Below are positions 2,424 through 23,771 of a stretch of 37,392 bases of DNA, one piece after another. Made by a program: the position numbers and the translations under genes. The notes beneath the pieces are model-generated. The model was given only the letters and a program-made list of their open reading frames with translations, was not told the DNA's origin and did no database searches. The stretch is from a virus. Lineage: Duplodnaviria; Caudoviricetes. The DNA is taken from IMG/VR virus record IMGVR_UViG_3300025103_000064, positions 1 to 37,392 of that record; one strand, 5' to 3'. The stretch's first letter is position 1, and each line of letters opens with the position of its first letter.

Positions 2424-2446
2424 ACTAATAAGAGAAAGGGGTAAAA

Positions 2447-3355
2447 ATGAATCAATCATTTTACACATCAGAGGCAAACTGGCAAAAACTGCATGATTAT
2501 GCGCAAGTAGCGTATGATAAACATAGATCAGAAATAGGTGGTATGTTAGTTGCCGTAGAGGATGAAGACGGAGACTGGATACTTCAAGATCCTGTTATAC
2601 TTAAGCAAGAAATATCTATGTCTAATTGTATATTAGATAAAGATGCTCTTGCATTATATTATACTAAGGCTGGAGTCAAGCACAAGGACTCTAACTTTAG
2701 ATTTGTATGGTGGCATAGTCATCACACAATGGATGCTTTCTGGTCAGGAACAGACTTAACTGCCATTAAAGAATATTCTGATGGTGATTTTAGCTTTGCT
2801 CTAGTAATAAACCTTAAAGGCAAGCATATATTTAGAGTTTCATGCTGGAAGCCATTTGAGATGCATATAGATACAAAGGTTGAGCTACTTGAAGGCAAAG
2901 AGAGAAAGATGCCTAAGAAAGTATTGAATGATGTTGAAAAGTTATGTAGTAAACGTAATTTTGTATATGGCAAGAACCATAAACAAACTAAATACACTCC
3001 ATATAATCCTCAGCAGACATCTTTAATCAAAGCTGTTGATGTAGACTCAGATATGGAAGCTAAAAAAGCCATAGAACTAGTTACATCTATTAACTATAGG
3101 TTTGCAGCTGGTGAGCTTGATTTTAAAGGCTGGATGAGGATTGTTAATGCATTTAATCTTAATCTTAATGATTGGTATATAGATGATGTGATAACTGAAG
3201 CTCAGCTAAAGAAAGATGTTATTCATCGTAAGTCTGAAGACTTTATTGAACCATTATATTCTGCTGAAGATATGGCTACAGTATTATCTGAAGAAGGAAT
3301 TGATGATAAGAAAGATGAATGGTATTTTAATCAAAGCTATGGAGGTATATACTAG
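2447..3355 (+). CDS. JAB/JAMM (MPN+) metallopeptidase, deubiquitinase-like
   Basis: EIGG glutamate plus an exact H-x-H-x7-S-x2-D motif, HSHHTMDAFWSGTD (nt 2714-2755). Confidence 0.9.
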   Translation: MNQSFYTSEANWQKLHDYAQVAYDKHRSEIGGMLVAVEDEDGDWILQDPVILKQEISMSNCILDKDALALYYTKAGVKHKDSNFRFVWWHSHHTMDAFWSGTDLTAIKEYSDGDFSFALVINLKGKHIFRVSCWKPFEMHIDTKVELLEGKERKMPKKVLNDVEKLCSKRNFVYGKNHKQTKYTPYNPQQTSLIKAVDVDSDMEAKKAIELVTSINYRFAAGELDFKGWMRIVNAFNLNLNDWYIDDVITEAQLKKDVIHRKSEDFIEPLYSAEDMATVLSEEGIDDKKDEWYFNQSYGGIY

Positions 3356-4014
3356 TGATTAATGAAAGATCAAGTGGATTGGTAAACAATTTAGGGGATT
3401 TTCATTTTCATATTCTTGGTTGTGGGGCTATAGGTAGCTCCACTGCCATGCAATTAGCGAGAATGGGAGCTTCTAACTTTTGTTTATATGACATGGATAC
3501 AGTAGAGAATGTAAACCTTGGAGTTTCACAATATATTATTAATGATATAGGTAAACCTAAAGTCTTAGCATTAAAAGATCATTTAGAATCTATAGGTGTC
3601 CCAAATATCTATACTTACAATGAAAGGTTCTCAGAGTTTTATCCTCAAGGAGAATCAGACATTGCAATATTAGGTTTTGACTCTATGGCAGCAAGATTAC
3701 AAGCAGTGGAAGCTTTATGCTCAAATCCTACTATTAAGCCTAAACACTTAATAGACGGCAGGATGGGGGCAGAGCACTATCAACAGTATATCATTGATAA
3801 ACCGACTGTAGGTAAATACAAGAAAACATGGTACTCAGATAGTCAAGGATCTCCTGAACCTTGTGCTGCAAAGGCTACAGCATACTGCGCATTTATGAGT
3901 GGTAGCTTTATAGCTAATGCAGTTCGCAAGTTAGCAACAGGACAACCTTACAACAAGGAATTTTCGTTCAACTTTCCAAATATGTTATTGGAAAAGTCAA
4001 CGATGACAGTGTAA
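3355..4014 (+). CDS. ThiF/MoeB/E1-family adenylyltransferase
   Basis: GTG start with GGAGGT RBS; ILGCGAIG Rossmann loop, LYDMDTVENVNL, DIGKPKV, GFDSMAAR, IDGRMG; candidate catalytic Cys170 in PEPCAAKAT. Confidence 0.92.
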   Translation: MINERSSGLVNNLGDFHFHILGCGAIGSSTAMQLARMGASNFCLYDMDTVENVNLGVSQYIINDIGKPKVLALKDHLESIGVPNIYTYNERFSEFYPQGESDIAILGFDSMAARLQAVEALCSNPTIKPKHLIDGRMGAEHYQQYIIDKPTVGKYKKTWYSDSQGSPEPCAAKATAYCAFMSGSFIANAVRKLATGQPYNKEFSFNFPNMLLEKSTMTV

Positions 4015-5257: not shown

Positions 5258-7045
5258 ATGATTAAAGAATTTGCTTTTGGGTTATCAGAGCGACATTATT
5301 TCCAAGATAGCTCCAGTGTATGTGACTGGATGAATATAGACAAAGATACCTATATGTCATTATATGAATTTGATGATGAGATTACTAATTTCTTTGCGAA
5401 TAAACACACTTTATCTGGTTTCGATGGCTTAGTTTATATACCTGACGAATTTATATTAGATGTAGATGGAAAGGATAAAACTGACCTTGAAAATGCCAGA
5501 CAAAAAACAATTGGACTACTCATGCTATTGGATGATCTTGGGGTTCCTTATCGTATTTATTTTAGTGGGAATAAAGGATTTCATGTCGGTATACCATCTT
5601 CTGCTTTTAGGTGGAAACCTGATGCTAATCTGCATCTCAAGGTCAAAGACGCGCTAACTAATGCAGGTATATTTGATTTTGCAGATCCATCTGTAACAGA
5701 TAAGACAAGGCTAATAAGAGTTGTAAATACAATGAATCTTAAAGCAGGTCTATGGAAGCGTGAGATAAATCGTAAAGATCTAGATAATGCATATATAACA
5801 GAACATCTACAGAAAATAGCTAGACATCCAGGTCCAGTATCTGATTTTGAACTTGAATGTGATCCAGTATTTGATGTAATGGAGAGAGTTAAGTTTGATC
5901 AACAAAAAGAACCTGAGTTTATATCACAAGGGAGAACGCCAGACCCAGTAAACTATCCATGTATAAATAGTATGTTATCCAGTAAAGAATGTGGATCAAG
6001 GCATGCTACAGCATTGCGATTAAGTGCTTGGTTTAGATGGCTATATCCAGAATCTGTTGTGCAGGTTATAATGGAGCAATGGAGACAACAAGTTGATGAC
6101 CCTGAATCACCATTTAAAGCTAAAGAAATGGAAAGTATAGTTAATAGTGCATATGATGCACATGGTGGATCAGGTAATAGATATGGTTGTGGTGATAAGA
6201 TCATGGATGACCATTGTAAAAATACATGCAAACTCTATAAGTCCAAGAAAAACCAGACAGTTATGGACTCCAACACTATGGAAACATCACTGATTAATTT
6301 CTTAACAAGCAACCAGAAGCCTCTTGACTTTGGTGATATATGGCCAGGTGAAAACTTTCCTATATATCCAGGTGAAGTAGTTGTTGTTCAAGCTCCTCCT
6401 AAGAGTATGAAGACTATGTTCTTACAGAATCTTATGAATGGGTTTAAGAGACCTACATACTTTATAGAGATGGAAATGTCTCCAAGGCAAATATGGTCTA
6501 GGTTTGTTCAGATAGAGATGGGCTGGAGTGAAGAAGAGTTACGAGCTCACTATGCTAAAGGTAAAAATGGTATGGATGAAAGATTCGGCTGGCTTACAGT
6601 TGACTATTCATGTCCATATGCAAATGAACTAGATAAGCGTATATCAATGCTATCAACGAAACCTGAAATAGTAGTGGTTGATCATATGGGATTATTTAAA
6701 TCTAAGCATAGAGATCCGAACATGAAGACAGAGGAAGCATCACAAGCATTAATGGAAGTTGCAGTTAAGCATAATATAGTAGTATTCACTGTTAGTGAGA
6801 TTACTAAAGGTGCATTCCATGAAGGCAATATGAATGTTGCTTCAGCTAAAGGTTCATTTAGAACAGCATATAATACTAATAAACTTCTATCAGTTATACC
6901 ATCTAAGAGTAAGATGACAGGACTTATTGAAGAATTACGCATTAGGTGTGAGGCTAATAGAGAACGTGAGCATGTAGACATGAAGCTAGAAGTAATAAAC
7001 AACAAGCTAATTAAGAATGAATTAGCAGTAATTGGAGAGTACTAA
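5258..7045 (+). CDS. AEP primase(-polymerase) + PriL-like Cys domain + SF4-type helicase fusion
   Basis: AEP motifs ILDVD, YFSGNKGFHV, DKTRLIR; YPCI...YGC...HC...C region; helicase VVVVQAPPKSMKT, FIEMEMS, VVVDHMG; AATAAGGAG RBS. Confidence 0.85.
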   Translation: MIKEFAFGLSERHYFQDSSSVCDWMNIDKDTYMSLYEFDDEITNFFANKHTLSGFDGLVYIPDEFILDVDGKDKTDLENARQKTIGLLMLLDDLGVPYRIYFSGNKGFHVGIPSSAFRWKPDANLHLKVKDALTNAGIFDFADPSVTDKTRLIRVVNTMNLKAGLWKREINRKDLDNAYITEHLQKIARHPGPVSDFELECDPVFDVMERVKFDQQKEPEFISQGRTPDPVNYPCINSMLSSKECGSRHATALRLSAWFRWLYPESVVQVIMEQWRQQVDDPESPFKAKEMESIVNSAYDAHGGSGNRYGCGDKIMDDHCKNTCKLYKSKKNQTVMDSNTMETSLINFLTSNQKPLDFGDIWPGENFPIYPGEVVVVQAPPKSMKTMFLQNLMNGFKRPTYFIEMEMSPRQIWSRFVQIEMGWSEEELRAHYAKGKNGMDERFGWLTVDYSCPYANELDKRISMLSTKPEIVVVDHMGLFKSKHRDPNMKTEEASQALMEVAVKHNIVVFTVSEITKGAFHEGNMNVASAKGSFRTAYNTNKLLSVIPSKSKMTGLIEELRIRCEANREREHVDMKLEVINNKLIKNELAVIGEY

Positions 7046-8757: not shown

Positions 8758-8895
8758 ATGAACTACAAACAAGAGGAAATAGATAGTCCAGAAGAGCTAT
8801 TAAAGATGCTCGTAAAAGAAATAAGGATTATATCTACAAAAATACAAGATATGGAGAAACAAGCAGACCGTATGATCAGGAAAGAACTATATTAA
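8758..8895 (+). CDS. small coiled-coil protein (45 aa, not in ORF track)
   Basis: ATG immediately after the resolvase TAG; AAGGA RBS; its TAA overlaps the stop of the convergent - strand gene. Confidence 0.55.
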   Translation: MNYKQEEIDSPEELLKMLVKEIRIISTKIQDMEKQADRMIRKELY

Positions 8896-11800
8896 TCAAC
8901 ACTTAGAGCTTTCTGAACTTCTTCTGCAATAACTCCTACAGGCTTAGCGACAAGCCTTAATGGTAATATTAGCGCTTGTCCTAAGTCTTCCTTTTGATAC
9001 ATCTCAATAAAAATATTTACAAACATAGGTAGAAACATTCTATATGTTTCCTGAAATACCTTTTCCTCCTCATCATCATCAAAGAAATCAAAGATAGTAC
9101 CAATTGAGAATAATGTTTGAAGCGCTGCTTGAATCATAACTGATGATCCACCCCTAACAGCTGGGCCAATTCCTTGACCAGTTATTCCCCTTATTACATT
9201 ATATATACCTCTATATACACCACTAAGGAAAGGTATTTGAACATGAGATAGACTACCTGCTATAGCCCATAAAGCTCTAGTAGTCAGGAATCTTTTCATT
9301 CTCATCTCAACCCTAGACTTAGGTATATAGTTGGGATTAAATAACTTAGCATACTCTATCTTCCTTTGAGCAGCACTTAAATGAGATTTACTTTTTCTAT
9401 AAGTATCAATATATTTCCATTCAGCACGCATTTGATGCCATTGATATGGTTTGAATTTCCAAAGTGTTTGACCTATAGCTCCCCTGAACATCTTACTCAA
9501 GAATTGCTGAGACATACCAAACATAGTAGCATTAACCATTTCTCTACCTGCTTCTAATGCAAGTGGATGCAGCAATGGGCTGTCATATTTATCAGACCAA
9601 TTCTCTGGAACTACACCATTTTGCCAAGCTAAGTATGCTCCAGTAAGAGCAGCCTCTTCACGCATCTTAATCTCAACTCCTGTAAATGCTAATAATTTAT
9701 CAGCACCTATCTTTCTAAACATTCCATGAAGTATACCCCCACCAAGACCCCATGTAGTCCACTGTCGAACTAAATCATCAGATATAACCCCAGACGTCTT
9801 TTCTATTAAAGCTTTTCTTTCCTTCTCTGTGAAATGTTTATTCTGGCCCTTCTTATCAACCACTCCATTAGTGATCTCCCATATACCTTCCATAACATCA
9901 TCAAATTTAGCTGCAGCTGCTACTGAATCTAATCCTAAATCTTTTGTAGCTTCTGCAATCCATGTCTGCCAATGATTACTCTTCCTAACTTTAGCCATCC
10001 ATTTTTGCTTACTAAGCTTAATGCCAACCCAATCCCTCATGGTTATAAAACCAGTCATTCCAGTCATCTTAGAGTTTGCGCTACCAACTAAAGCATCACC
10101 AATAGCGATCATAACATCTGTAACACCTGACTCTTTTGCAACTCTTTCAGACAAGGTAGGATCTAATTCATTTAGATCTTCTAAGTCAATCTCTAGAGCT
10201 GCCATAACTTCTGCATATGTATTAAGCCTCTGAAAATTATTATTCAGCGCTGAACCCATTTGAAGTGAACTACCAGATATAATTGAGCTAAGTGTATGCA
10301 ATGGTTTATATAGCATATTAGAAGTCACTGTAATATTCTTAAAGATAGGGACCTTTCTAAGGTTACGTTGTATTTTATTCGCTACATGCTCAGTGCCGTA
10401 GTTTAGCCCCATAAAACCAGCAGATGCATCATGTCTACCCATGGTAGCTTTAGTCTGATCTACTATATAATCACGAACAGGTTTATCAACAGCCAATGAA
10501 GATTCCAATAGAGATAACTTTAAGTGATTTTGATTCATTTGCTTTGTTATATTCTCAGCATATTCAAGGAATACATTAAAATCTAATCTTCTACCAGCAT
10601 GTATTTCTATCCCAGTTTCTTTGTGATATATTGGGAACGGAGATAGTAATCCAGATCTCTGCTTAGCATATTTAATTACATCTTGTAATCCCATGGGGAC
10701 GGCTTCATGCTTTTCTTTTAGAGCTAAAGCAATATCCCGTTTTTCAACAGCAACATCAAGCATATCTTGCTTATCTTCCATATTTGAATGCGCTAATATT
10801 GCAGCAGGTGAAGAGGCTCCTTCTTGTTCAACTAACCTATTGTATTTAGCCTGAGCAGTTCGTAAATTAGAATCAGCAAATACTATATTCTTAGAAAATG
10901 CTCTTAAGCTATCATGCAATGCAAACATCCAAGTACTATAGTCGTTCCTTTCACCCATAATTTTAAATGCAGATACAACAACACCTTCTTTAACCCAGGT
11001 ATTATTGTTTACATCTAATCCCATTATCTCATTAATTACGGCATCTAATTCTTTCTTGGTAAACTTTTCTCCAAGCCTAGTTTTAGTAACAATCCTATTC
11101 AATTCTTTATTAGCTTTAGATGCAGAATTATTTTCCTCAAGGAATACTTGCTTTAATATCTTTCTCATAGAATCTACAAAGTCATAAAATTCTTGAGGCA
11201 ATGTTTCTTCTTCGGTCAAGCCATCAACATCAGGGTATCTAGAGTCTTCACTACTCAATACAAAACCACCATAAGCTTGAGTGTCTATATCCTGTCTTTG
11301 GCCCTTTTTATTTATTTTGTAGCCAGACAGTTGTTCATTAGCAGTAGCACTGTACCAACCCTCTTGCATGCTACCAGCTACCTGCGCACCAGCTTCATTA
11401 ATAGTGGGAGCTAACCTTCTTGAGGTTCTTGGAGTTCCATCAGCATTTTTAGCTCCAAGGAACCATTCAAACCACACTTCCTGCCTATCAGTACGATTAG
11501 GTGGTTGAGCTATGCCTGTAAAGGTAGTTCCACCTTCTTGAGTATATGTTTGCATTGGAACTTCATAAGCTCTCCATACAATCCTTCCGTCAATTTCTTT
11601 CCTAATTGGTATATATGCAAATTCTTCTTTAGTTTGAGGGTTAATGTATGTCTGTATATGACCACCCTTAAAGATATGATTAGTATGAGCCATATCTAAT
11701 AGCTTAAATATTTCTTTCTCATCCTCAGCAAATTCCTTTGTCTTGGCAGGCTTACCATTAATAGAAGTGAATAATGCAGTAGGTACAATACGCCTAGTCT

Positions 11801-12647
11801 GTCCATCTAATATACGATGAGCTAGTGAAACTAGGTTGGCCATTGTGCCAGTCCTTCTTTCCTCTTTGGATTTTGTTATAACTCTTTCGCCATCAGCATT
11901 AACATCATCAACATTATATGCATAATTATTGTATGACACATATTGATTTAGTTTAGAGAAACTAATTTTCATTCTATCTTTAAAGTAGTTTGCATCTGAG
12001 GAAGATTTAGACAGGAAGTCTTTAGTATCTTGAACAAACTTAACCGCCCATCCACTTTGGTCAAGTTCAGCCATTGCCATTACAGGGTCCATAACCTGAT
12101 CTTGCCACCAGCTTAAATCACCTGGCTTATATCTCTTGAATAATTTAGCAAGCATACTTGTTTTCGCTTTGCCTGCAGACTTAGCCTGCCTTTTAAATAT
12201 ATCTACTAAATCATTACCTATTGATATCAAATCTTCTGCAGATAGCTGATTAAGATGGCCAAATGCACCATACCTCTTCTTCAATAGATCTTTAATAGCA
12301 TTTAATTGGATATTAATATCCAAATCTACAATTGCACCTTCTGATAGGAAGTCATCAATTTGATCAACTAGCAACTCTCTTACAGTAGATAATGCTTTGA
12401 ATTTTAAAGGGTATTGTTTGAGGTCATTATCTGATTTAATAATCTCATACTGAATGCTTTTAAGCTCTCTCTTTAACCTAGTCTTTTCTTTGAAGTCTTT
12501 AGCCTTTTTGAGATCCATCTTTAAATCTCTTTGCTTTCTCTTCTTGTTTTTATTGTCATCCTCGATAAGACTTCGATTGTTTATAATATTACCAAAGATC
12601 TGATTAAAACTAGCTTTTATTCTAGGTCTATTTACACTACACGCCAC
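8892..12647 (-). CDS. large internal virion/ejection protein (1251 aa)
   Basis: GTG start with GAGGGG RBS, overlapping the RNAP stop; helical, Cys-poor; C-terminal region with MFG.......FK.Y pattern and hydrophobic helices typical of podovirus ejection proteins. Confidence 0.7.
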   Translation of the reverse strand: MACSVNRPRIKASFNQIFGNIINNRSLIEDDNKNKKRKQRDLKMDLKKAKDFKEKTRLKRELKSIQYEIIKSDNDLKQYPLKFKALSTVRELLVDQIDDFLSEGAIVDLDINIQLNAIKDLLKKRYGAFGHLNQLSAEDLISIGNDLVDIFKRQAKSAGKAKTSMLAKLFKRYKPGDLSWWQDQVMDPVMAMAELDQSGWAVKFVQDTKDFLSKSSSDANYFKDRMKISFSKLNQYVSYNNYAYNVDDVNADGERVITKSKEERRTGTMANLVSLAHRILDGQTRRIVPTALFTSINGKPAKTKEFAEDEKEIFKLLDMAHTNHIFKGGHIQTYINPQTKEEFAYIPIRKEIDGRIVWRAYEVPMQTYTQEGGTTFTGIAQPPNRTDRQEVWFEWFLGAKNADGTPRTSRRLAPTINEAGAQVAGSMQEGWYSATANEQLSGYKINKKGQRQDIDTQAYGGFVLSSEDSRYPDVDGLTEEETLPQEFYDFVDSMRKILKQVFLEENNSASKANKELNRIVTKTRLGEKFTKKELDAVINEIMGLDVNNNTWVKEGVVVSAFKIMGERNDYSTWMFALHDSLRAFSKNIVFADSNLRTAQAKYNRLVEQEGASSPAAILAHSNMEDKQDMLDVAVEKRDIALALKEKHEAVPMGLQDVIKYAKQRSGLLSPFPIYHKETGIEIHAGRRLDFNVFLEYAENITKQMNQNHLKLSLLESSLAVDKPVRDYIVDQTKATMGRHDASAGFMGLNYGTEHVANKIQRNLRKVPIFKNITVTSNMLYKPLHTLSSIISGSSLQMGSALNNNFQRLNTYAEVMAALEIDLEDLNELDPTLSERVAKESGVTDVMIAIGDALVGSANSKMTGMTGFITMRDWVGIKLSKQKWMAKVRKSNHWQTWIAEATKDLGLDSVAAAAKFDDVMEGIWEITNGVVDKKGQNKHFTEKERKALIEKTSGVISDDLVRQWTTWGLGGGILHGMFRKIGADKLLAFTGVEIKMREEAALTGAYLAWQNGVVPENWSDKYDSPLLHPLALEAGREMVNATMFGMSQQFLSKMFRGAIGQTLWKFKPYQWHQMRAEWKYIDTYRKSKSHLSAAQRKIEYAKLFNPNYIPKSRVEMRMKRFLTTRALWAIAGSLSHVQIPFLSGVYRGIYNVIRGITGQGIGPAVRGGSSVMIQAALQTLFSIGTIFDFFDDDEEEKVFQETYRMFLPMFVNIFIEMYQKEDLGQALILPLRLVAKPVGVIAEEVQKALSVD

Positions 12648-15600
12648 TACAAGGCCCCTCTCTATCAGTTAACATTCCAAGGACATCATCTCTATCACTA
12701 ACCAGCCTTTCATTTACCGCTTTTGAATCATATTTATTGAAAGTCTGCCCCTTAGCATTTGTCTCTTTATAATATTGTATATCTTCCTGTTTTTGCTTGT
12801 ACACTTTGTATACACCTTCATGAAGAACAGGTAATGGAGGTAACTGCTTAATGTTTATAGCTGAAGCATCTCCTTCTGCATCTAATATAGCTACTCTATT
12901 TAATATAGAAACTGTAACTGCAGCAGAGAATCCTTCTCCATACTTTTCTACATTCTTCCCAAGCTGAAACTCCATAGCAGATGTTAATGCTAACAAATCT
13001 GCATCATAATTTACAGAATTTTGCGTATATACTCCACCTAGATTCTTTATAATACCCCAGTACTTATTCATTAAGTCAATAGCAAAAGCCTCAGCTTTAG
13101 TTACTGCCTCGGAACTAAGGCCATATCCTTGATTCATAGCCCATGTAGCAGCGTCTCTAGCTGCAATAAGGTGTGCGTTGTTATCTAACTCTTCACTCCA
13201 CTCCATTGGAGACTGCTGTCCATCTTCTCCAAACTTCTTCCTCAATTGAGTTATCGGGTTTAAAAGCAACTCTTCTTCATAGGTGAGTATTTTATTCATG
13301 CTAATGTCACTAATCTTTAGAGATATCTCTTTAGTTTTCCCATTGATAATTTCTTTATCAGCCATTAATGACTCTGCTTGACCCTCTGCACTTAAATCAA
13401 AAAATGCATGTAGATTTGTAAGCTTATAGTATATCTGATCAATACTCATCTTATTACCAACACCATCTCTACCCTTCTTTAATGCAGAAAAGCTAAAGTT
13501 GTCTAATAGGCCCGGTAAATACTTACCTCCTACTCTACGACCTTTTAACAAGCTAACATGACCATTGGTTAACTCACCTCCCTCGATATTGAATATTCTT
13601 TCATATATCCATGATGGCTTTTCATAACCCCACTTAGTCGTAAGGATTGTATTCTTAGGGTGATCTACTGCAGCATTAACAATAAGCAGCATCTCATGCT
13701 CAGCAGTAGTCTTTAAATATCTCTTGCCATTAACAACTACAATGCTAGCCCATGTCCAGCCCATCTCATGCAATATATCAGTAGTAAGAGGCACCATCAC
13801 TTTTTTACCCTTACTATTAAAGCGTTCAACTTTATCTTCTAATGGCGCATAGTCCATAACAGACATATCATCTGGTTTTTTAGGTGTAAGAGTAACAACA
13901 TTACCATTCTTTTCAGTGAACTCAATGCTATTAAAGTGCTTAGATAAGGTGAATAGCAAGTTTTTAGCATTAGTCATAATCCCTTGAGTATAATGCCCCT
14001 TAACTGTATCTGACATATCTTGCAATGTGCCTGAGAAACTAGCTAAAGAGCTAGACTCTGATACCTCAAATATATCAAGCTCTGAAGATTTCTTTCTTTG
14101 CTCTTTAAAGAACACGCTGTTCTGGAACTTCTCGAATGCTTTTGCTTGCTTGTCTGTTAACAATACAACTCCAGCCTCATCAATATCAAAGTCACCAACT
14201 AGTCTTGTATATACATCTAATGGGTGGTGATATATAGCATTCCCCTCGTCTTCAACGAACTCTAAAATCCTTCGTGACTCTACTGCATTAATACTAACAA
14301 TCGGAGCTCTGTAATCATAAACACTTATTGGATTAGCCTTTAATTCAGTATTGACCAGCTTAATTTGCTGGCTCTTGTTTGCTGAATCAAACCCTTGAGG
14401 TAACATCTTTTTCGCTTTCATAATCTTAACTATCTTATTATATATAGCATGATTATCTGCAGATAAGATAACCCCTTGAGGAACACCATTTTCATCAAGT
14501 CCTATTCTTCCTGGGTCTGGTTTAAGGATATAGTGGCTACCTACCTGACCTTTAGCACTCTTAAGCATACGGGGATCAGTGGTCCGTGCCTGGGTAGCGC
14601 CCTTATTAAATATCAAATTAGTCAATAAAGATTCAAACAATGCTCTAAACTCAGGAGAGTTAATACCAATACCATCTAACACTGTAAGTTTATCTGCAAT
14701 GTGATTCTTTTGTACATTCTTCTCAGCAAAAATATACCCAATAAGTTTACGCATCTTATTAGGATCCTCTACCGCATCCAATAAAGAGTTGATATACTCA
14801 CTAGACTGATCTAATAGCATATCTGTAAAGAATCTACCAAACTCATCTATAACATCCTGATGAGCATCACTGGTATAGCTAAGCACATTTAAATATTGTG
14901 TAGCATTAAATACATTCCCAGCTGATCTTGCATGAGGAGCTATCACAAGTCTCCTTGAGGTATTAGGTAATGAGAATGAATGAGATGTTCTGCCAGTTAA
15001 ATCATACTCTCCAGTATTAGTCTTAACAGCATCCTTATCACTTATCATATCTACAGGGGTATATCTTCCATCCTGAACTTTGAATATTCTAACCTGATCA
15101 CCCTCTTTAATAATGTCAGCTACTATATTATCAACAACATCAGGGTCTTTGCCTTTCTTAACAATCTTAAGTCCAGCAATACCTACTTGCTCTGAATGCT
15201 TCATCTCTATATAGTTCTCACCATCCTCAGAGAGCTCTACAAGTACAGTCTTAATTTCTCTTAAATTATGCTCATTCTCATATACTGCAAATACTCCATA
15301 GCCATCTGCAGTTGCATCTGCAAACTCAGTAGATATAAATGATATACCATCAGCCCAGTTCTTAGGGTTAACTAGTCCAGGTAATTTTGATATATTCTCA
15401 ATCTTCTCGCCATTATAATATACATCCACATTCTCGTGATCATAAATCAAATGGTTAGAGTCTCTTGCATCAGGGTTAATTAAGCCCTTAGTTACTGATA
15501 GCCTAGACCTATTAAAGTTATGTCTAGTTCCCTTCTCTAGATAGCCATTGCCGCGCACTGCCTTCCACCATTCATGCTTAGCTATGATACCAGCCATGTG

Positions 15601-17196
15601 TTGCCAGCCAGGATAAGCTCTTCTACCATTAATCTTAGGTATATCTTTTAAGCTGCCTATAAATTCATTCTTAACATTGCTGTCTTGAGTTTGAGTCTCA
15701 ATGTACTTTTGAAAGTTATTAAATGCTAGTATATCTGCAACCTGTAATGCCTTGATATAAACTATAGCTCTATTCATTAACTCTCTAGTATTCTCTGTAA
15801 TTGCAACGCCCTCAGTCTTTGCAACGAATCCACCCTTACCATCTATCTTGATAAGTCCCTCAAGCTCCTTGTCTGTTATCTTCCTAAACATTGTATCGAG
15901 CTTAGTAAATATAGAAGTCTTGCTACCAGCTAGCTCATTCATAAACCATTTAGGTAGCTTCATCTTCTTGAATGCAGCCAATAACTCTTTCTCTGTCAAT
16001 AATTCTGTTACATGCTCCCCTAATACTTCAGTAATTATAAAGTTACCCTTATCACCAGCACTCATGCCAACTAGAACTTGTGGCATTAATTGAGTTTTAG
16101 ACCTTTGACCCATAAGGCTTACAGCCCAGCTATTAAGCATGCTAGGGGATATCTCAGACAATACATCCTTTGCAAACCAAGTACTTCCTGCCTTAACAAT
16201 TTCCTTTAAGTCACTTAATGTCATGTACTTAGTAACTTCACCTACTCTTATACCTCTGACTTGAGTCTTTAGACCATCTATAAAGTTGGTATTTAACCAT
16301 TCAGGGTTATCTATTTTGGTAGAGAGATTGAATGGGAGTATAGTTTGAAACATCTTTATAACTTTATTAGCAGTCATAGCAGTAGCTAGCTTCTCTTTAA
16401 CTATAGATAAGACTCCTTTTGACTCACGCATTAAACTAGCTAGCTTCCCTCTGCTAATATTAGTATATGTAAGTTGAACCCGCTCATTAGATTTAATCTT
16501 ATTAATGCCCTGATTTACAACCCAGAATGCTTTTATTTTTCTAAAGTTGTTTAATGCATCTTTTAATTCTCTCTCAGTATATGCTTCATTAGTCTCTGGG
16601 TTTATATCAACACCAGCAGTAATGCCTTCAATGTCATTCTTATCTAATATTATTGCATTAAAATTATTCTCTGTCCAATCCCAGAAGTCAACAAAAGGCA
16701 AACTGCGAACCTTATTATATACTTTTGCAATATCCTTTTCGGGTAAAATCTCTCCAACTAAGTCAAAGAATAATCCATCATATACCTTGGGCCCACCATC
16801 ACCAACCCTAATGCTAGGAGAATTATTATCATCTCCGCTATAATTACCCTGCTCATCTGACTCCTCTACAACCTCTATCTTCTTTTCAATTGCAAACAAC
16901 TCATGAATAGCACTTAAGTTATAGGTTTCAGTCCCAGCTTGAGCTAAAGATAAATCAACCTCCTCTGTAATAAAGCTTTCACCCAAGCCTTTTCCTGGGA
17001 ATGCTTTCATTGCAGCCTCATTAAGGAGCTCTATATCTGTTATATGAAATCCATCAGTGCTTCTTATACGATGCCTGAGCATTTGTAATGCACTAAGAGG
17101 ATCATCTGAATAGTTCTTTAGATAATCTTGCAATTGAGACTTTAGCTCATCAACTACACCTTCCCTAGTTGTAGGACATACTCCATTAAACCCCAT
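12637..17196 (-). CDS. virion-encapsidated two-barrel RNA polymerase, crAss-like/RdRP-related (likely start 17196, 1519 aa)
   Basis: YRAP...RLVGDFDID catalytic motif (nt 14179-14193); WADGISFIS, EIKT and MKHS beta-like motifs; NAAVDHPK; located in the ejection-protein cluster; TAATG coupling with a GGAGAGG RBS. Confidence 0.85.
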   Translation of the reverse strand: MGFNGVCPTTREGVVDELKSQLQDYLKNYSDDPLSALQMLRHRIRSTDGFHITDIELLNEAAMKAFPGKGLGESFITEEVDLSLAQAGTETYNLSAIHELFAIEKKIEVVEESDEQGNYSGDDNNSPSIRVGDGGPKVYDGLFFDLVGEILPEKDIAKVYNKVRSLPFVDFWDWTENNFNAIILDKNDIEGITAGVDINPETNEAYTERELKDALNNFRKIKAFWVVNQGINKIKSNERVQLTYTNISRGKLASLMRESKGVLSIVKEKLATAMTANKVIKMFQTILPFNLSTKIDNPEWLNTNFIDGLKTQVRGIRVGEVTKYMTLSDLKEIVKAGSTWFAKDVLSEISPSMLNSWAVSLMGQRSKTQLMPQVLVGMSAGDKGNFIITEVLGEHVTELLTEKELLAAFKKMKLPKWFMNELAGSKTSIFTKLDTMFRKITDKELEGLIKIDGKGGFVAKTEGVAITENTRELMNRAIVYIKALQVADILAFNNFQKYIETQTQDSNVKNEFIGSLKDIPKINGRRAYPGWQHMAGIIAKHEWWKAVRGNGYLEKGTRHNFNRSRLSVTKGLINPDARDSNHLIYDHENVDVYYNGEKIENISKLPGLVNPKNWADGISFISTEFADATADGYGVFAVYENEHNLREIKTVLVELSEDGENYIEMKHSEQVGIAGLKIVKKGKDPDVVDNIVADIIKEGDQVRIFKVQDGRYTPVDMISDKDAVKTNTGEYDLTGRTSHSFSLPNTSRRLVIAPHARSAGNVFNATQYLNVLSYTSDAHQDVIDEFGRFFTDMLLDQSSEYINSLLDAVEDPNKMRKLIGYIFAEKNVQKNHIADKLTVLDGIGINSPEFRALFESLLTNLIFNKGATQARTTDPRMLKSAKGQVGSHYILKPDPGRIGLDENGVPQGVILSADNHAIYNKIVKIMKAKKMLPQGFDSANKSQQIKLVNTELKANPISVYDYRAPIVSINAVESRRILEFVEDEGNAIYHHPLDVYTRLVGDFDIDEAGVVLLTDKQAKAFEKFQNSVFFKEQRKKSSELDIFEVSESSSLASFSGTLQDMSDTVKGHYTQGIMTNAKNLLFTLSKHFNSIEFTEKNGNVVTLTPKKPDDMSVMDYAPLEDKVERFNSKGKKVMVPLTTDILHEMGWTWASIVVVNGKRYLKTTAEHEMLLIVNAAVDHPKNTILTTKWGYEKPSWIYERIFNIEGGELTNGHVSLLKGRRVGGKYLPGLLDNFSFSALKKGRDGVGNKMSIDQIYYKLTNLHAFFDLSAEGQAESLMADKEIINGKTKEISLKISDISMNKILTYEEELLLNPITQLRKKFGEDGQQSPMEWSEELDNNAHLIAARDAATWAMNQGYGLSSEAVTKAEAFAIDLMNKYWGIIKNLGGVYTQNSVNYDADLLALTSAMEFQLGKNVEKYGEGFSAAVTVSILNRVAILDAEGDASAINIKQLPPLPVLHEGVYKVYKQKQEDIQYYKETNAKGQTFNKYDSKAVNERLVSDRDDVLGMLTDREGPCSGV

Positions 17197-20100
17197 TATA
17201 TACCTCTCCCGCAATTATTAATAATATCTGATATATCATCTGTCTCTTCTTCAACATTGTCATAGTTATCTTCGTTTAATTCTTGTGCTGATTCATCTGC
17301 AAAATTAGACGCATCCTCACTATCTATCATATCCAATCCCTTGGCTACAGCAGAGGCAGGAGTAACTCCTTCTCCAGTAGGCGTGATCGTAATAGTCTCT
17401 CCAGTATCAGTTTTAACTTCTTCTTCTGTAATCTTTTCTTTTTTAGGCTCCACCTCTACCTTAGGCTTAGGCTTAGTACCTAAACTTAATTGCTTTTGCT
17501 GTTTCCTTAATGCCCCAATAGCCATCTTTAATTGGGTTGCTCCTGGTCCATCCATCTTGGGCAAGGCTCTTTCTAGCTTATCTATCTCGGCCTGTATCTC
17601 AGATGCCTTAGTTTCAATAGGATCTTCCACTGGAGTAGACTCTTCTTCACCAAAGAATGCATCCATTTTTTGAGCTGTAGTTTTAGGCTTCTTCTTAGCA
17701 GGCTTATCTTTCTGGGAGGTTTTAATGTTAATCTCAGATACAGCCTGTTTTGCCATAGCCTTCATTAAGGCTGAAATCATATCCTCCCTTTTAGTTTTGG
17801 TAGTATACTTAAGCCCATAGGCATCCATTAGGACTTTAAGGCTCATCTTGGTTAAGCCTCTAAATCCAGGCTTACTTTTAGTCCCCTGTGTGCCCCCAAG
17901 GAAAGCTTTTAATCCGTTTATACCCCTCTGTTCAAATGCTACTTGTGCTGCATAAGCTAAATCTTTAACATCCCATCCTTTATTAGGGTCTAAGAAAATA
18001 TCTTTAACTCTAGATCTTCTTGCATTTCCTTCATCTATTTTTTGTTGTTCAGCTGGACCAGGAGCTTTTGAACTCTGATATGTTGCTCCTGTATCTACAT
18101 TCCCCTCTAGAAATTCATTTAATTGATTTGTAAACTCTGTTTCATCATTATAGACTTTTATGAAATCATCATTATCCTCTAAAGCCTTATCGAGAAACTC
18201 ATCTGCTTTATCGCCTACTTCTTGCCCGCTTTCACCTGGGGCAATGCTTGATTTTACTTCCCTTTTGTAATTTATTCTTAATTCCGATATAATAGTATTC
18301 TTGATAGACTCATCTTGGATTTCATCAAGCACACCAATGCCAGCTTTATCAATAACCATTTGTATAGCTTGGCTAACATCAGCCATAAGCCTGTTATCTT
18401 TGCTTAGTTTATTTAATATAATTTGAGCATCAGTTAAATCTTGATGGTCCTTTGATCTACCCCTATTGCCTTTATCCCATATTCGTGCAATTGCCCCTAA
18501 CCTACCATCACTTGATTGATGAGCCAGTGCAATTAATAATTCCCCCATAGTACTTATATCTTCAATGTTCTTATTAAGCTCTGGTACAGCAAAACCTTCG
18601 TCTTCTGCTTTTTTTTGCACAGTGCTTGTTATTATTTTAGCCGTATCCTTGTCTTTAGTAATAAACCTTTTTATTTTCCCGCCAATACCAACTAATATAC
18701 CTGGCTTGCCGTCAGGAGAATCTTCATCAACTCCAATAGTTACTTGGTCTTTGGCATCTTTATTACCCATTAAATAAGATATACCTTTAGTCCCTGCAGA
18801 CATACCACCACCACCAGCTGTACCAGTAAAGAATGCCTGGAGTGCTTCAGGAGATGATGCCATTTCTTTCATATTTTCCATATTAGAAAATTGTCTATGG
18901 TATAAATCCATAGCTTCTTCAGGGGTTGCAGCATGCCCAGATTCTAATGCTTTACTCATAGCTAATCCATTAATCTCTTGCATTGCCTCTATAACACCTT
19001 CTTCAATGTTATCTACTAAGAACTCACCACCCTTACTCATCCACTTAGCAACACCTCCAGCTTTCATTGCATCATCATAAAATTTTCTTAATACAGTAGA
19101 GGTAAGCAGGGTTTTAGCCTGATCGTCAAATGCTCCATACTTTGCTATCTTGGTGAATTGTAATTTCTCTAGTAAACCATTAGTGATACCAACAACTAAT
19201 GCTGTTGATGCAGCTATTGGCACAGCCTGTCCTGGATCCATCTTAAGCTCATTAACAAGAATGTCTAATGACTCTTCCATCTGGCCACTACCTTCCATTA
19301 ATGTCATACCGCCTACCTGGGCAAAGCTACCTACTGTTAAATTCTTTAATCCTTGTTTTACTGTCTGAGTACCAATAGCTGCGCCAAAGGTTTGCCTAAC
19401 TGCTCCAGGAGCTCCACCTAACAGTGTACCAACAGTCATACTTGGCAGCATATCTGCAACAGCCCGAGCTATCATTTGAGGGTGTACAAATTGCCTAACT
19501 CCATGATCTTCATAGCTGAATGGTGTTTCTTTTTGCCATTGCAAGTAGCCCTGTACGCCAGGGTTATTAATAAGATACTCATCTTGTCTTTTTTTATGCT
19601 CAGTCCAGAAGTCAATAGTTTTATTTGTCAGCCATTCCTCAGCTTCTTTCCAGTTTGGACCAATCCCAAATGGTAGGAACGATGAGCTTCTTAGCTTATC
19701 AGCTCTTTCAAGCATATCTTCTTTAGTAACTTTATGTATATTCCCGCTACCATCAACCCAATCCATCATCCCATTTTCATCAAGGATAGGATTTCCACTA
19801 CCATCTTTTGTAATGCTCTCTGTTACCATCGCATAAGCTGATTGCTCATCAAAGCCTCCAGCTACTTGCCCTGCAATAAAGGTTGGGATTCCACTTATAA
19901 ATCTTTGACCAGTATACCATGCCTTACTATCATCGCCAAATATATGAGCTCCAACAGCAGTCTCCTCACCATCAACCATGATGCTTTGAGGTTTTCTTGT
20001 ACCAATATTTAATGCTGCATCTATTGCACCACCAACAATAGGAATCTTAGACACCATTGAACCTGTTGGAGTCATTTCCATATCGTATTCAGAAAAGTCT

Positions 20101-20255
20101 ACAATGCTATCAATATCCAATGTAGAGCGCATAGCATCTGCAAATTCAGCAGGATCTGTTATATCTTGGTATCTAAAATAGTTTGGGTTTTCTTGTCTGA
20201 ATTGAGTCCCCCACTCAGCAGGGGTCAACTTAGTAGCGACTTGAGGGTCGGCCAT
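17196..20255 (-). CDS. large internal virion/ejection protein (1019 aa)
   Basis: Gly/Ala-rich hydrophobic helices with an E..EEG..E..QE pattern, HeH-like motif near the C-terminus, acidic tail; TAATG coupling. Confidence 0.7.
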   Translation of the reverse strand: MADPQVATKLTPAEWGTQFRQENPNYFRYQDITDPAEFADAMRSTLDIDSIVDFSEYDMEMTPTGSMVSKIPIVGGAIDAALNIGTRKPQSIMVDGEETAVGAHIFGDDSKAWYTGQRFISGIPTFIAGQVAGGFDEQSAYAMVTESITKDGSGNPILDENGMMDWVDGSGNIHKVTKEDMLERADKLRSSSFLPFGIGPNWKEAEEWLTNKTIDFWTEHKKRQDEYLINNPGVQGYLQWQKETPFSYEDHGVRQFVHPQMIARAVADMLPSMTVGTLLGGAPGAVRQTFGAAIGTQTVKQGLKNLTVGSFAQVGGMTLMEGSGQMEESLDILVNELKMDPGQAVPIAASTALVVGITNGLLEKLQFTKIAKYGAFDDQAKTLLTSTVLRKFYDDAMKAGGVAKWMSKGGEFLVDNIEEGVIEAMQEINGLAMSKALESGHAATPEEAMDLYHRQFSNMENMKEMASSPEALQAFFTGTAGGGGMSAGTKGISYLMGNKDAKDQVTIGVDEDSPDGKPGILVGIGGKIKRFITKDKDTAKIITSTVQKKAEDEGFAVPELNKNIEDISTMGELLIALAHQSSDGRLGAIARIWDKGNRGRSKDHQDLTDAQIILNKLSKDNRLMADVSQAIQMVIDKAGIGVLDEIQDESIKNTIISELRINYKREVKSSIAPGESGQEVGDKADEFLDKALEDNDDFIKVYNDETEFTNQLNEFLEGNVDTGATYQSSKAPGPAEQQKIDEGNARRSRVKDIFLDPNKGWDVKDLAYAAQVAFEQRGINGLKAFLGGTQGTKSKPGFRGLTKMSLKVLMDAYGLKYTTKTKREDMISALMKAMAKQAVSEINIKTSQKDKPAKKKPKTTAQKMDAFFGEEESTPVEDPIETKASEIQAEIDKLERALPKMDGPGATQLKMAIGALRKQQKQLSLGTKPKPKVEVEPKKEKITEEEVKTDTGETITITPTGEGVTPASAVAKGLDMIDSEDASNFADESAQELNEDNYDNVEEETDDISDIINNCGRGI

Positions 20256-22360
20256 TATTCTACTCCTATTTTGCCGTCACTAAGACTGGCAATAAAATCA
20301 TCCACTCCTTCATACTGAGATGCATTAAGAGCATACATATACTCTAGCATCCCTTTACTAATTTTATTTACACCAGCAGTATTAAACTCTTTGAGTAATC
20401 TTCTAAGCTTAGGTAATTCCTTAGCAACCATAGCAGCATCAGCATCACCTCTCATGCCTTGTAGTTCTTTAATAGTTTCTTGCAGCTCTTTTTTAGCTGA
20501 ACTCTTTAGCTTACGAGTAACATTCTTGTCAGACCATATTCCAATTTTTCTTAATTGCTTAGAGTCTATAGAATTAATATAAGACATATCATCTTGATCT
20601 GGTGATTGAGATGGTACTGATACTCTGATATCAGCTACTCTTTCAGCCTCTGCACGTTTAGCAACAGCCTCAGGACTCTTATCTTGAGCTAATCCACCTA
20701 ATACCTTGCCTAGTGATAGTTTGCCTTTATCAGGAACTGCAGCAGGTTTACTTGGTTTAGATGTAGGCTTAGGATCTATTGATGCAATAATATCTGTGAC
20801 ATCTACCCCTTTAGCCATAGTGAATGTGCTCTTGGGCTCTGTAGATGGAGCTTTTCTTACCTCATCCCATTCGCTCTCTGGTATTTGTGCAAATTCTTCA
20901 GCTCTCTTCTTGTCTGCTATAGTCTTAACTAAATCCAATATATTGCTCTGACCCTTCATTATACTTTGACCAGCAGCAGTTTGCTTTCCTGCAGGAGTTC
21001 CACCAACAGTTTTGGGAGGAGCTAATACTCCAACTGGTTGAGTGGTAGATGGTATAAATGGACTTGGAGAAGTAGACATCTTTGTGCCAGTTGCAGGAGG
21101 TACTACGGGAGCTGTAGGCTCCTGTTCATCTACAGCTAAATTAACAAGCCTATTAGTATATGCTGATATAGAACTATCTACATTAGTATTGCTCTGAGCA
21201 TCAAGGATTTGGTCTTGAATGTCGCCGGTCTTCATATATAGATCTAGCATCTTAGAGAAATGAAGTCTTTGGTTCCTGGCAGTCGCAGTATCAGGATCAC
21301 CAGGCTTAAGCCCATAGCCCCATGTATCTACATTGCCTTCAAGTATATCATATACAGATTGGTTGGGATTTTCTTTTAACTTATCTTTAATGAAGTTCTC
21401 AAGGCCATCAATATTCTTTGAGTAAGATCTTCCATTCTTCTTCTTAGGTAAATCAATAAATCCAGTATTAAATACATTGGTTATATTCTCACCGACACTA
21501 CTTCTAACATATGAAATATTATCAGGAGTAATTTCTTTCTCGGTAAACTGTAGTGCACTAAAGTCACTCGTTAAAGTCTTTTTATAGTCATCATTAAGTT
21601 CACCGTAATTAAAGTCTTTTAGCTCTCTATCTAACAAGCGCATGTCTTTAGTGCCGTAATTAAGGATTGCCCCTACATTGCCTGCATTAATATCTTTAGA
21701 TATCTTAAACAATTCCTTCATAGCATCTTTGTTAGATATTGCCCCTACTTTATTCATCTCATAAAGATTCTTAAGTCCAGTAGTAGCAGATTGTATACCT
21801 GGAGCAACTATTATATTACCGTTCTCATCTGTTTCGCCCAATGCTAAATCATCTATATAGTTAAACATAGACTTAGTCTTAATATCATCCCCAAGAGCTT
21901 CTATTTCTTTTTGATATGCACTATATTCAGTAGAATTAAAGTATTGCTTCTTAGCCTCAAAGGTAGTCATCATAGAATTGTATAGCTCTTGCATACCTGA
22001 AGTAGTATCTTCTAGTTTTAATTCCTTGGCTTTAGCAAATGATTGGTTAAAACTAACAACTGCCTCTTGCTTGTTTACAAAGTTATCCCTTAATCTGCCC
22101 ATTGCTTTTAGTGCATTGTTTCCTGCCATAGCTATAGTGGGGTCATTACCATGGGGAGTTAATTCATCCATCATAGAGGCTGCAGCTGCATCAAATTGAG
22201 CTACACTTGTATAATTAGCAGCTTCCTTTAAGTACCCTTCAGTAGCAGCTATAGATAGTTTCTTCATTTGAGAGTTTTCAGCCATACTCCTTTGTATCAT
22301 CAACTTAGGGAGATCACTCATTAATTTTTCTAAACCTGTTGCTATTCTACTTCTAGCCAT
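20255..22360 (-). CDS. internal virion/ejection protein (likely start 22360, 701 aa)
   Basis: TAATG coupling; helical N-terminus, Pro/Thr-rich linker, no Cys. Confidence 0.6.
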   Translation of the reverse strand: MARSRIATGLEKLMSDLPKLMIQRSMAENSQMKKLSIAATEGYLKEAANYTSVAQFDAAAASMMDELTPHGNDPTIAMAGNNALKAMGRLRDNFVNKQEAVVSFNQSFAKAKELKLEDTTSGMQELYNSMMTTFEAKKQYFNSTEYSAYQKEIEALGDDIKTKSMFNYIDDLALGETDENGNIIVAPGIQSATTGLKNLYEMNKVGAISNKDAMKELFKISKDINAGNVGAILNYGTKDMRLLDRELKDFNYGELNDDYKKTLTSDFSALQFTEKEITPDNISYVRSSVGENITNVFNTGFIDLPKKKNGRSYSKNIDGLENFIKDKLKENPNQSVYDILEGNVDTWGYGLKPGDPDTATARNQRLHFSKMLDLYMKTGDIQDQILDAQSNTNVDSSISAYTNRLVNLAVDEQEPTAPVVPPATGTKMSTSPSPFIPSTTQPVGVLAPPKTVGGTPAGKQTAAGQSIMKGQSNILDLVKTIADKKRAEEFAQIPESEWDEVRKAPSTEPKSTFTMAKGVDVTDIIASIDPKPTSKPSKPAAVPDKGKLSLGKVLGGLAQDKSPEAVAKRAEAERVADIRVSVPSQSPDQDDMSYINSIDSKQLRKIGIWSDKNVTRKLKSSAKKELQETIKELQGMRGDADAAMVAKELPKLRRLLKEFNTAGVNKISKGMLEYMYALNASQYEGVDDFIASLSDGKIGVE

Positions 22361-23127
22361 TACCAATGACCCCCTTTACCACTTTTCCAATGTCCATCAT
22401 AAAAGACGCCTTCATCATAATAATGATATGGTTGTTTTGTATCCGTTTTATACCAAGTATCACCATGTTCACCCCAACCATTATTATGGCCAGCACTTTG
22501 AGTGCCATACCCGTGTCTCTCAGTACCGTCTCCATCCCAATCTAAGCCAAAAGCAGTCTGATAGCGGGCTAATTCTATATCTCCTCCTGCAGCTCTAATA
22601 TTCGCTTCTGTTACACCATCTGCAGCTACTTCAGCATCAATTTCATTTTGAGTTGCTCCATCACCCCCTACAGCTGTATTATATGCCTCAACTGATGAGG
22701 CCATATCAGATTCATATTGTTCTCTTAATGAACCTATAGCCTCTCCTAGCCCACGTTTAGCACTTCCTTGAGCCCTATATAACCCTGCTTGTGCTCTAGA
22801 TGCAGCAGCCATACCTTCTTCTTCCATAGACTCCATTGTGCCAGAAGTAAGGCCACCTTTTATACTTTTAGATAATGCTTTTCTTTCTGCAATAGCTTTA
22901 GTGCGCACGTCCTCTGTCTTATCTCCTAAATCTGTAAGCCCAGACATATAGTCTGCTAATAAATTTTGTTCTTTAAGTGGGTCGTATGTGTATAAGTAAT
23001 CTGAAACATCAACATCATCACTTACTATTGTATCTCCCATGTACTCATCATATATAGAACTACCAAACTCTTCGGAAGAGCCACCAAATCCCTCACCATA
23101 GTTTAAATTATCTGTACCGAATGGCAT
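22360..23127 (-). CDS. putative ejection protein (255 aa)
   Basis: Acidic, Gly/Ala-rich, coiled middle; position in the ejection cluster. Confidence 0.55.
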   Translation of the reverse strand: MPFGTDNLNYGEGFGGSSEEFGSSIYDEYMGDTIVSDDVDVSDYLYTYDPLKEQNLLADYMSGLTDLGDKTEDVRTKAIAERKALSKSIKGGLTSGTMESMEEEGMAAASRAQAGLYRAQGSAKRGLGEAIGSLREQYESDMASSVEAYNTAVGGDGATQNEIDAEVAADGVTEANIRAAGGDIELARYQTAFGLDWDGDGTERHGYGTQSAGHNNGWGEHGDTWYKTDTKQPYHYYDEGVFYDGHWKSGKGGHW

Positions 23128-23771
23128 TATTTATTATCCTTAATATAAGCTTCATAAACATCTAATCCTAGCTTCTGCTTTCCATAGTTTTTAGCACCTC
23201 GACCAATCAATTGTTTTGCCTGCTCCTGAGCTAAGTAAGAATAAGAACTAGCCCCTCCTTGCCCAACCTTAGCTGCAGATGATGCAAAAGCACCAGTGCC
23301 ACCTTGCAATCCAGTGCCAGCATTTAATCCACCTCCCGCAGTATATACACTAAACGCATCACTAGCGGCGTTCATAAGTCTATCCTCATTAACACCTTTT
23401 TTATAGTCCTCAAGAGATTTATTCATGTCAGCCACCTTATCTCTACCAAATCCACCAGATTCAACAGTAGTGTCTATACCTCCTGCTGCTCTTTCACCTG
23501 CCTTACTACCAGTATATGAACCTATTCCAGCTCCTATTGTAGCAGCTGTAAGTCCAGACATAACAGCTAAGCTTGCACCTCCGGTTAGTGGAGCTAATGC
23601 AAGGCCAGCAAGTGCGCCTAATCCTGCTCCACCCAGTCTACCCCAAAAAGAACTATCAGCAGCAGCTTCATTTTGTTCTTGGGCTCGCTGTGCTGAACTC
23701 TTTAGAATGTTATCTGATTTTCTTATATCCTTTGCGAGGTTATATCTTGCTCTTACTCTGCCACTAGCCAT
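23127..23771 (-). CDS. putative ejection/DNA-transfer protein with glycine-zipper membrane segment (214 aa)
   Basis: GRLGGAGLGALAGLALAPLTGGASLAVMSGLTAATIGAGIG; TAAGGAG RBS. Confidence 0.65.
   Translation of the reverse strand: MASGRVRARYNLAKDIRKSDNILKSSAQRAQEQNEAAADSSFWGRLGGAGLGALAGLALAPLTGGASLAVMSGLTAATIGAGIGSYTGSKAGERAAGGIDTTVESGGFGRDKVADMNKSLEDYKKGVNEDRLMNAASDAFSVYTAGGGLNAGTGLQGGTGAFASSAAKVGQGGASSYSYLAQEQAKQLIGRGAKNYGKQKLGLDVYEAYIKDNK

Follow-up and report, generated by a model that had tools for sequence, protein, structure and literature searches.

Why should six adjacent genes of a tailed phage, encoding 4,959 amino acids (aa) in total, carry only four cysteines (Cys), and why should these four lie at the ends where one gene product abuts the next? 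The question is raised by a stretch of 37,392 nucleotides (nt) of viral DNA (Caudoviricetes; IMG/VR record IMGVR_UViG_3300025103_000064, positions 1 to 37,392), referred to below as the window, in which six minus-strand open reading frames (ORFs) between 8892 and 23771 encode putative ejection proteins, among them an RNA polymerase (RNAP). A comparison with related genomes makes it likely, in our view, that each facing pair of Cys forms a disulfide that takes the place of a peptide bond, and that three large proteins, A, B (the RNAP) and C, would thereby be joined into one A-RNAP-C chain.

The cysteines of the window

The genes and codons concerned are the following.

17196..20255, minus strand: protein A, 1019 aa; sole Cys at residue 1015; distant homologue of the crassvirus gp67/gp47-type cargo protein
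17211..17213, minus strand: Cys codon at the C-terminal end of A, junction 1 (residue 1015)
12637..17196, minus strand: protein B, RNAP of 1519 aa with its ATG at 17196; Cys at residues 7 and 1516 only
17176..17178, minus strand: Cys codon at the N-terminal end of B, junction 1 (residue 7)
12649..12651, minus strand: Cys codon at the C-terminal end of B, junction 2 (residue 1516)
8892..12647, minus strand: protein C of 1251 aa, starting with GTG; its only Cys is residue 3; corresponds by position to crassvirus gp65/gp49, with weak homology
12639..12641, minus strand: Cys codon at the N-terminal end of C, junction 2 (residue 3)

These positions, checked by residue and nucleotide in the ORF translations, bear out the claim of an earlier sequence-only reading that the six proteins hold just four Cys, all at abutting termini. 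The remaining 18 ORFs of the window contain 55 Cys in 6,832 aa (0.8%), so that about 40 would be expected in the 4,959 aa of the block. For four Cys in these three large proteins, the probability of finding every one of them no more than 10 aa away from one of the six ends is about 6e-8.

The GTG start of C at 12647, which the same reading had wished to see confirmed, is correct to judge from the alignments. An ATG stands at the same place in the two closest relatives (L009 and L011), and Met1 and Cys3 are invariant in 10/10 aligned homologues of 22-80% identity. The 3' end of a GAGAGGGG stretch lies 7 nt upstream of the GTG, and the first ATG is codon 44. In protein A, Cys1015 likewise forms an invariant column (9/9 aligned). 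The TGTAGTG direct repeat that had been pointed out at the B/C junction is indeed present in the window; it is absent from all 10 related B/C junctions examined and must thus be regarded as incidental. A scan for promoters and terminators gave no excess above shuffled sequences.

Conservation of the terminal cysteines

The distribution of Cys was tallied at 16 of 24 loci of the window's clade, namely the window's own contig and 15 relatives with an RNAP identity of 26-79%. Seven duplicates or near-duplicates (L007, L008, L016, L021, L022, L023 and L025) and a fragment without ends (L012) were excluded. At these loci the paired proteins are encoded by giant genes that follow one another in the cargo block, and a Cys is present at 57/57 facing ends and at 0/20 outer ends. 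Broken down by type, the complete facing ends comprise A tails (13/13), B heads (13/13), B tails (16/16) and C heads (15/15), and the outer ends comprise A heads (0/9) and C tails (0/11). Each terminal Cys lies within 8 residues of its end, and the 51,097 aa in between contain no internal Cys. The rule, a Cys at every facing end and none at the outer ends, is therefore absolute in this clade of 54-57 kb.

The same rule is found in the Crassvirales. Our survey covered 80 of 99 matching loci, and the tally of separate genes was made over 44 loci (42 plus crAss001 and DAC15), with terminal windows of 30 aa from the first possible start at the N-terminus and 20 aa at the C-terminus. The remaining loci comprise 14 complete fusions and 24 that were omitted, of which 15 are near-duplicates, 6 are partial fusions and 3 (L073, L078 and L099) have an RNAP that is broken or split; the record of IAS virus, containing Ns, was omitted as well. 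For the separate genes a Cys occurs at 167/167 facing ends and at 0/73 outer ends, and the omitted duplicates and partial fusions have the same pattern as far as their sequence reaches. Pooled over both groups the counts are 224/224 and 0/93. The expectation of the sequence-only reading that terminal Cys would be conserved among homologues is thus amply met by both groups.

The individual cases are equally clear. In phi14:2 the Cys are residue 1797 of 1797 in A, residues 3 and 2179 of 2180 in the RNAP and residue 3 in C, and in crAss001 they are residue 2339 of 2341 in A, residues 5, 1334 and 2404 of 2412 in the RNAP and residue 5 in C. Moreover, the A gene of crAss001 and DAC15 is located on the other strand and the rule still holds, so that it does not arise from overlapping genes.

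Fused and split genes

Fusions of the genes offer a natural control. In all 11 A+B fusions the C-terminal Cys is kept, with at most one other Cys in 7 of them, and in all four B+C fusions the N-terminal Cys is kept. The three complete A+B+C fusions (5,472-5,639 aa) have no Cys at all. The fused parts were confirmed by profile for A in L061, L064, L091 and L095 and for C in L062, L069, L109, L095, L098 and L106; for the other fusions the call was based on protein length and on finding no separate gene. In the wider clade, 17 long homologues were tested, and 9 of them are matched by the A profile as well as by the B profile; the eight complete ones among these have a single, C-terminal Cys, and the truncated one has none. 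A further set comprised ten loci, nine of which were examined (L133 repeats L002). At eight of these the long RNAP protein (2,167-2,704 aa, or cut at the 5' side) has its sole Cys at the C-terminus and the next gene starts with a Cys (8/8), and the ninth has three genes with the full pattern.

Fusions thus remove exactly the Cys pair of the junction concerned, as the sequence-only reading had predicted. Since A+B fusions retain only the pair of B tail and C head, and B+C fusions only that of A tail and B head, the pairs are A-B and B-C. The head-to-tail pairing proposed from the window is therefore supported by conservation, by the fusions and by the disulfide of cyanophage A4 described below, and is probably covalent.

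Some unusual gene arrangements were encountered on the way. ProJPt-Bp1 was considered as a case of a split inside the RNAP and rejected, as it is an A+B fusion. The crAss-like loci L082-L087 are readable only with NCBI table 15 (TAG recoded), and their A+B fusion of 4,483 aa obeys the rule. In the crAss-like locus L078 (7373-21777) the break in the RNAP comes after the catalytic motif, with a gene of 1161 aa between the halves; the C-terminal half is encoded by a gene of 871 aa and has Cys at residues 3 and 871 only. It is possible that this half represents a fourth link, with a Cys gained at a new break.

Identity of the RNAP and its partners

Pfam, PHROGs and NCBIfam gave no family name for any of the six proteins, and the only matches of note were below the cut-off: MakA for the protein of 214 aa and histidinol-phosphatase for B. 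The latter protein contains a DFDID motif at residues 1002-1006, and the pattern D-x-D-x-D is invariant in 45/45 aligned sequences. An AlphaFold model of B built from this 45-row alignment reached a predicted local distance difference test score (pLDDT) of 88.5, compared with 33 for a fold of the single sequence. With this model the top match in Foldseek was the virion RNAP of phi14:2 (6vr4, E 2.3e-13), followed by QDE-1; the fold matches were two-barrel polymerases without exception, and the T7-type single-subunit fold of the Schitoviridae was not among them. Model and motif together support that B is a two-barrel RNAP of the phi14:2 gp66 type. The modelled helices reach to 6 residues before the C-terminal Cys, and the last 7 residues have a pLDDT below 50. 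A predicted complex of the C-terminal 218 aa of the RNAP and the N-terminal 175 aa of C had a score of 0.00 and is used as evidence in neither direction.

Profile comparisons by hhalign relate A to the crassvirus A profile (probability 89%, E 2e-6) and B to the crassvirus B profile (87%, E 4e-6), so that the window's A and B are homologous to those of the Crassvirales; the match of C is weak (3.7%, E 0.011), and the six off-diagonal A/B/C pairs all had E values of at least 0.16. The neighbours of C in the atlas were unnamed viral clusters, with LPD39 on 28% of one cluster. A sequence search of the PDB with the RNAP profile gave no match, and the same was true for phi14:2 gp65 and gp67. The crassvirus counterparts of A, B and C are virion proteins according to mass spectrometry (MS) (GenBank notes; PMC10172136; here and below, statements on cited papers refer to the parts of their text that were accessible). 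Homology to these cargo proteins, together with gene position, suggests that A, B and C are virion cargo as well.

The likeness to the Crassvirales concerns the order of the three genes (gp67-gp66-gp65 in phi14:2, GenBank gp078-gp077-gp076; gp47-gp50-gp49 in crAss001), the fold of the RNAP and the Cys rule. In contrast, the RNAP of the window's clade is shorter (1,435-1,683 aa versus at least 2,090 in Crassvirales), and the three relatives rated 100% complete have genomes of 53.5-56.6 kb, whereas complete crassvirus records have 88-103 kb; the clade thus falls short of the about 90 kb taken as a criterion for Crassvirales. The capsid protein of a relative and the window's protein of 1946 aa gave no phmmer match, in a single-sequence test, to the major capsid and muzzle proteins of crAss001. 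By these tests of genome size and capsid proteins, the clade lies outside the Crassvirales. A tblastn search with B against 50,697 phage records gave no match, and no relatives of the RNAP that would point to a host were found in the genome collection.

Precedents in other phages

A precedent for one such junction exists. As resolved by cryo-electron microscopy, cyanophage A4 (Anabaena phage A-4L) contains a disulfide between gp27 Cys1715 and gp26 Cys5, which locks the C-terminal helix of gp27 in a cleft of gp26 (PMC12002296). We checked the genome and found these to be the only Cys of gp27 (1,717 aa) and gp26 (1,114 aa), the former being third from the C-terminus and the latter residue 5. The accessible text of the paper describes the bond as stabilising and makes no mention of the sole-Cys pattern or of a general rule (PMC12002296). 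Like the window, the pre-ejectosome of A4 thus has adjacent giant ejection proteins with their sole Cys at facing ends; unlike the window, it has one junction and two proteins and lacks the DxDxD motif of an RNAP. Searches with phmmer and profiles revealed no similarity of A4 gp27 or gp26 to A, B or C (best E 0.34).

The giant ejected RNAPs of coliphage N4 (gp50) and other Schitoviridae (e.g. gp71 of DEV) offer a second comparison. They are organised as N-terminal domain (NTD), RNAP and C-terminal domain (CTD), have about 3,500 aa and are Cys-free. They differ in that the polymerase is of the T7 type, with an unrelated fold, and is usually a single polypeptide. The one-piece virion RNAPs of this family have been reported to be almost Cys-free, with stray Cys in non-conserved regions (PMC11445570). 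In Alteromonas phage AD45-P1, where the N4-like virion RNAP is split, the only Cys are residue 2493 of 2495 and residue 4 of 1409. In the original paper the Cys was read as indicating that the protein is not injected (PMC3821669). Finally, crAss001 virions from anaerobic growth contain inter-subunit disulfides, and MS of reduced and non-reduced virions has been described (PMC10172136).

A probable disulfide-joined chain

In the chain that we propose, A Cys1015 would be linked to RNAP Cys7 and RNAP Cys1516 to C Cys3, so that three separately translated proteins would be held together in the particle as a single chain some 3,800 residues long. Each tail would first dock non-covalently on the head of the next protein during assembly in the reducing cytoplasm, and the docked Cys pairs would become oxidised at lysis or later, a sequence of events suggested by the structure of A4. 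The chain would fix A, RNAP and C at a ratio of 1:1:1. Following the channel proteins, A would draw both the RNAP and C along through the tail, in the manner of N4's undivided NTD-RNAP-CTD protein, which has been proposed to exit like beads on a string (PMC13434306). The purge of all other Cys would avoid wrong cross-links in the particle and in the periplasm. After entry the bonds would probably be reduced, as a by-product and not as a needed switch. The inferred elements of this scheme are the docking, the moment at which oxidation takes place, the stoichiometry and the order of exit.

Several observations weigh against the scheme or temper it. The case for disulfides in the window phage and in crassviruses is comparative, related genomes do not constitute independent events, and the virion location of the window's proteins is deduced. 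The absence of sequence similarity between A4 gp27/gp26 and A, B or C makes that precedent an analogy. The loss of terminal Cys in fusions does not name the chemistry either, as two termini vanish by definition. Moreover, the strict form of the rule has its exceptions: L128 and L129 have an extra Cys at residue 27 of C, which contradicts the notion that the terminal Cys are the only ones, and internal Cys occur in 16 of the 44 crassvirus loci (126 in 224,302 aa, with up to 38 in one RNAP). In L078 the last Cys of the N-terminal half of the RNAP is found 287 aa before the stop, so that this locus is an imperfect case.

Alternative explanations

The sequence-only reading had gone one step further and suggested that release of the same chain in the reducing cytoplasm would activate the RNAP; the purpose of the disulfides would then be to be cut upon entry by thioredoxin or glutathione of the host. 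The cytoplasm indeed reduces disulfides. In addition, phi14:2 gp66 is auto-inhibited and its activation unexplained (bioRxiv 2020.03.07.982082), and the CTD of N4 represses the RNAP when in contact with it (PMC13434306). However, fusions of A+B, B+C and A+B+C occur in many lineages and cannot be released by reduction; the Cys-free triple fusions (3/3) imply that release by reduction is not generally required for activation, although the suggestion that fused forms may be cut by a protease instead (bioRxiv 2020.03.07.982082) keeps the switch alive. Moreover, recombinant gp66, purified alone with dithiothreitol and crystallised with tris(2-carboxyethyl)phosphine, is still auto-inhibited (bioRxiv 2020.03.07.982082), hence freedom from its partners is insufficient for activation, and the N4 RNAP has been proposed to remain tethered after ejection (PMC13434306). 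A redox switch is therefore unlikely. The wider idea, that tailed phages have repeatedly invented a way of rejoining split genes (this clade, Crassvirales, N4-like phages and A4), by placing a Cys at each side of the break and forming a disulfide, and that cutting of the links in the host cytoplasm frees the RNAP from its partners and so acts as a sensor of entry, seems to us only slightly less doubtful.

That the facing Cys would share a metal ion, as had also been proposed, is quite improbable. Such a zinc clasp could form already in the reducing cytoplasm, which would explain both assembly before oxidation and the retention of the Cys in phages of anaerobes, and a His is found within 12 aa of the B-head Cys at 4/8 loci. 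Each end has a single Cys, however, and a site with four ligands would require two chains to come together. A second Cys is absent, the 16/16 C-terminal Cys examined have no His close by (A tails and B tails, 8/8 loci), a His lies near the C-head Cys at 1/8, and the one resolved case, A4, was modelled as a disulfide (PMC12002296). Even less probable is that the terminal Cys act singly, in homodimers, as a tether to portal or channel, in a loop within the RNAP or as sites of modification by, for instance, the ThiF- and JAB-like proteins that the window encodes. Terminal residues are accessible; yet outer ends never carry a Cys (0/93), triple fusions are Cys-free, single fusions keep just the remaining facing pair, and the neighbouring protein of 701 aa offers no Cys as partner. 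The loop is excluded by the fused RNAPs, which keep one of the two Cys. Chance or tolerance, finally, would mean that Cys were purged from the ejected proteins and survived in unconstrained ends or overlapping codons. Purging has been documented for Schitoviridae (PMC11445570) and the genes of the window do abut or overlap, but the asymmetry between facing ends (224/224) and outer ends (0/93) refutes this explanation, the Cys being moreover an invariant column amid unconserved flanks and the rule holding for non-adjacent and inverted genes. Its probability is negligible.

Other genes and side observations

Three further proteins of the block, all of them Cys-free, precede the chain.

20255..22360, minus strand: protein of 701 aa (701/703); by its position and lack of Cys probably an ejection protein of channel type that is not part of the chain
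22360..23127, minus strand: acidic protein of 255 aa; likely a small ejection protein outside the chain
23127..23771, minus strand: protein of 214 aa with a Gly/Ala-rich hydrophobic stretch near residue 53; likely a membrane-inserting small ejection protein

The upstream counterparts of the 701 aa protein are Cys-free in the relatives. In some of them (L003:1089-2624, L004:3345-4499, L005:997-2400 and L024:2090-3199) one of the small genes upstream, a counterpart of that for the 255 aa protein, encodes a Cys-rich product with 6-10 Cys, which places the 255 aa protein outside the Cys rule.

Elsewhere in the window, on the plus strand, a block of three genes at 705-4014 encodes a protein of 572 aa, a JAB-like protein (Pfam E 1.8e-4, below the cut-off) and a ThiF protein (Pfam E 6e-19). 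For the 572 aa protein the atlas gives no more than a lead, namely a cluster (score 0.79) in which 13% of the members have Prok-E2_D; the gene of this protein and that of the JAB-like protein recur in the relatives L121 and L124. The block looks like a phage-borne ubiquitin-like conjugation module, by these matches and with no ubiquitin-like substrate identified. Downstream of the chain and on the opposite strand (plus, 5258-7045) lies a gene for a primase-polymerase/DnaB helicase fusion of 595 aa, which is kept in most relatives and is a handy marker for the clade of 50-60 kb genomes.

Among the crassviruses, L089, L090, L097, L101, L102, L108 and L109 have 6-38 Cys in the RNAP protein and keep the terminal ones. 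We would guess that a relaxed purge of internal Cys in some crAss-like lineages is linked to anaerobic hosts. One close internal Cys pair each was seen in cargo-type proteins outside the chain (L026 gp45, 390/398; L027 gp080, 369/378; L073:15816-17537, 122/129; L078:13197-16682, 353/360) and possibly represents a single intramolecular disulfide. An ORF of 307 aa in L099 with a Cys at both ends was rejected as an extra link, as it is the frameshifted N-terminus of C. A charge code for the choice of partner was rejected as well: the difference in tail charge reverses between the window's clade (A -4.7 versus B +0.2, 11 loci) and the crassviruses (A -0.2 versus B -2.2, 32 loci).

Relation to the literature and implications

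The sequence-only reading had left undecided whether such a pattern was already described. One junction in one phage, A4, has been published; a full-text search, which left most subscription papers outside reach, found no published statement of the terminal-Cys rule or of disulfides that chain a virion RNAP to its neighbours. The words 'cysteine' and 'disulfide' are absent from the accessible text of the gp66 preprint (bioRxiv 2020.03.07.982082), a Crassvirales review (PMC10136315) and a 2026 paper on N4 (PMC13434306). The text of the crAss001 atlas, as far as accessible, places disulfides in tail and vertex proteins only, and its Extended Data could bear on the claim (PMC10172136). What is likely to be new here is the three-link chain around the virion RNAP in a clade outside the Crassvirales, the link at one junction being known from A4.

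For crassviruses it is an open question how several megadaltons of cargo, including the RNAP, are counted into the head and leave it in order. The relation of their three RNAP-associated proteins to the NTD, core and CTD of the N4 protein has been named as unresolved (PMC13434306). The rule provides a testable answer to the latter question, in that the three crassvirus proteins would be one chain. The predicted pairs are gp47 Cys2339 with gp50 Cys5 and gp50 Cys2404 with gp49 Cys5 in crAss001, and gp67 Cys1797 with gp66 Cys3 and gp66 Cys2179 with gp65 Cys3 in phi14:2. The view that a protein with a Cys is not injected is likewise corrected by the rule, which the window extends to a 54-57 kb clade outside the Crassvirales. 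In unannotated phages the rule allows ejected cargo to be recognised, start codons to be settled and subunits to be placed in order from sequence alone.

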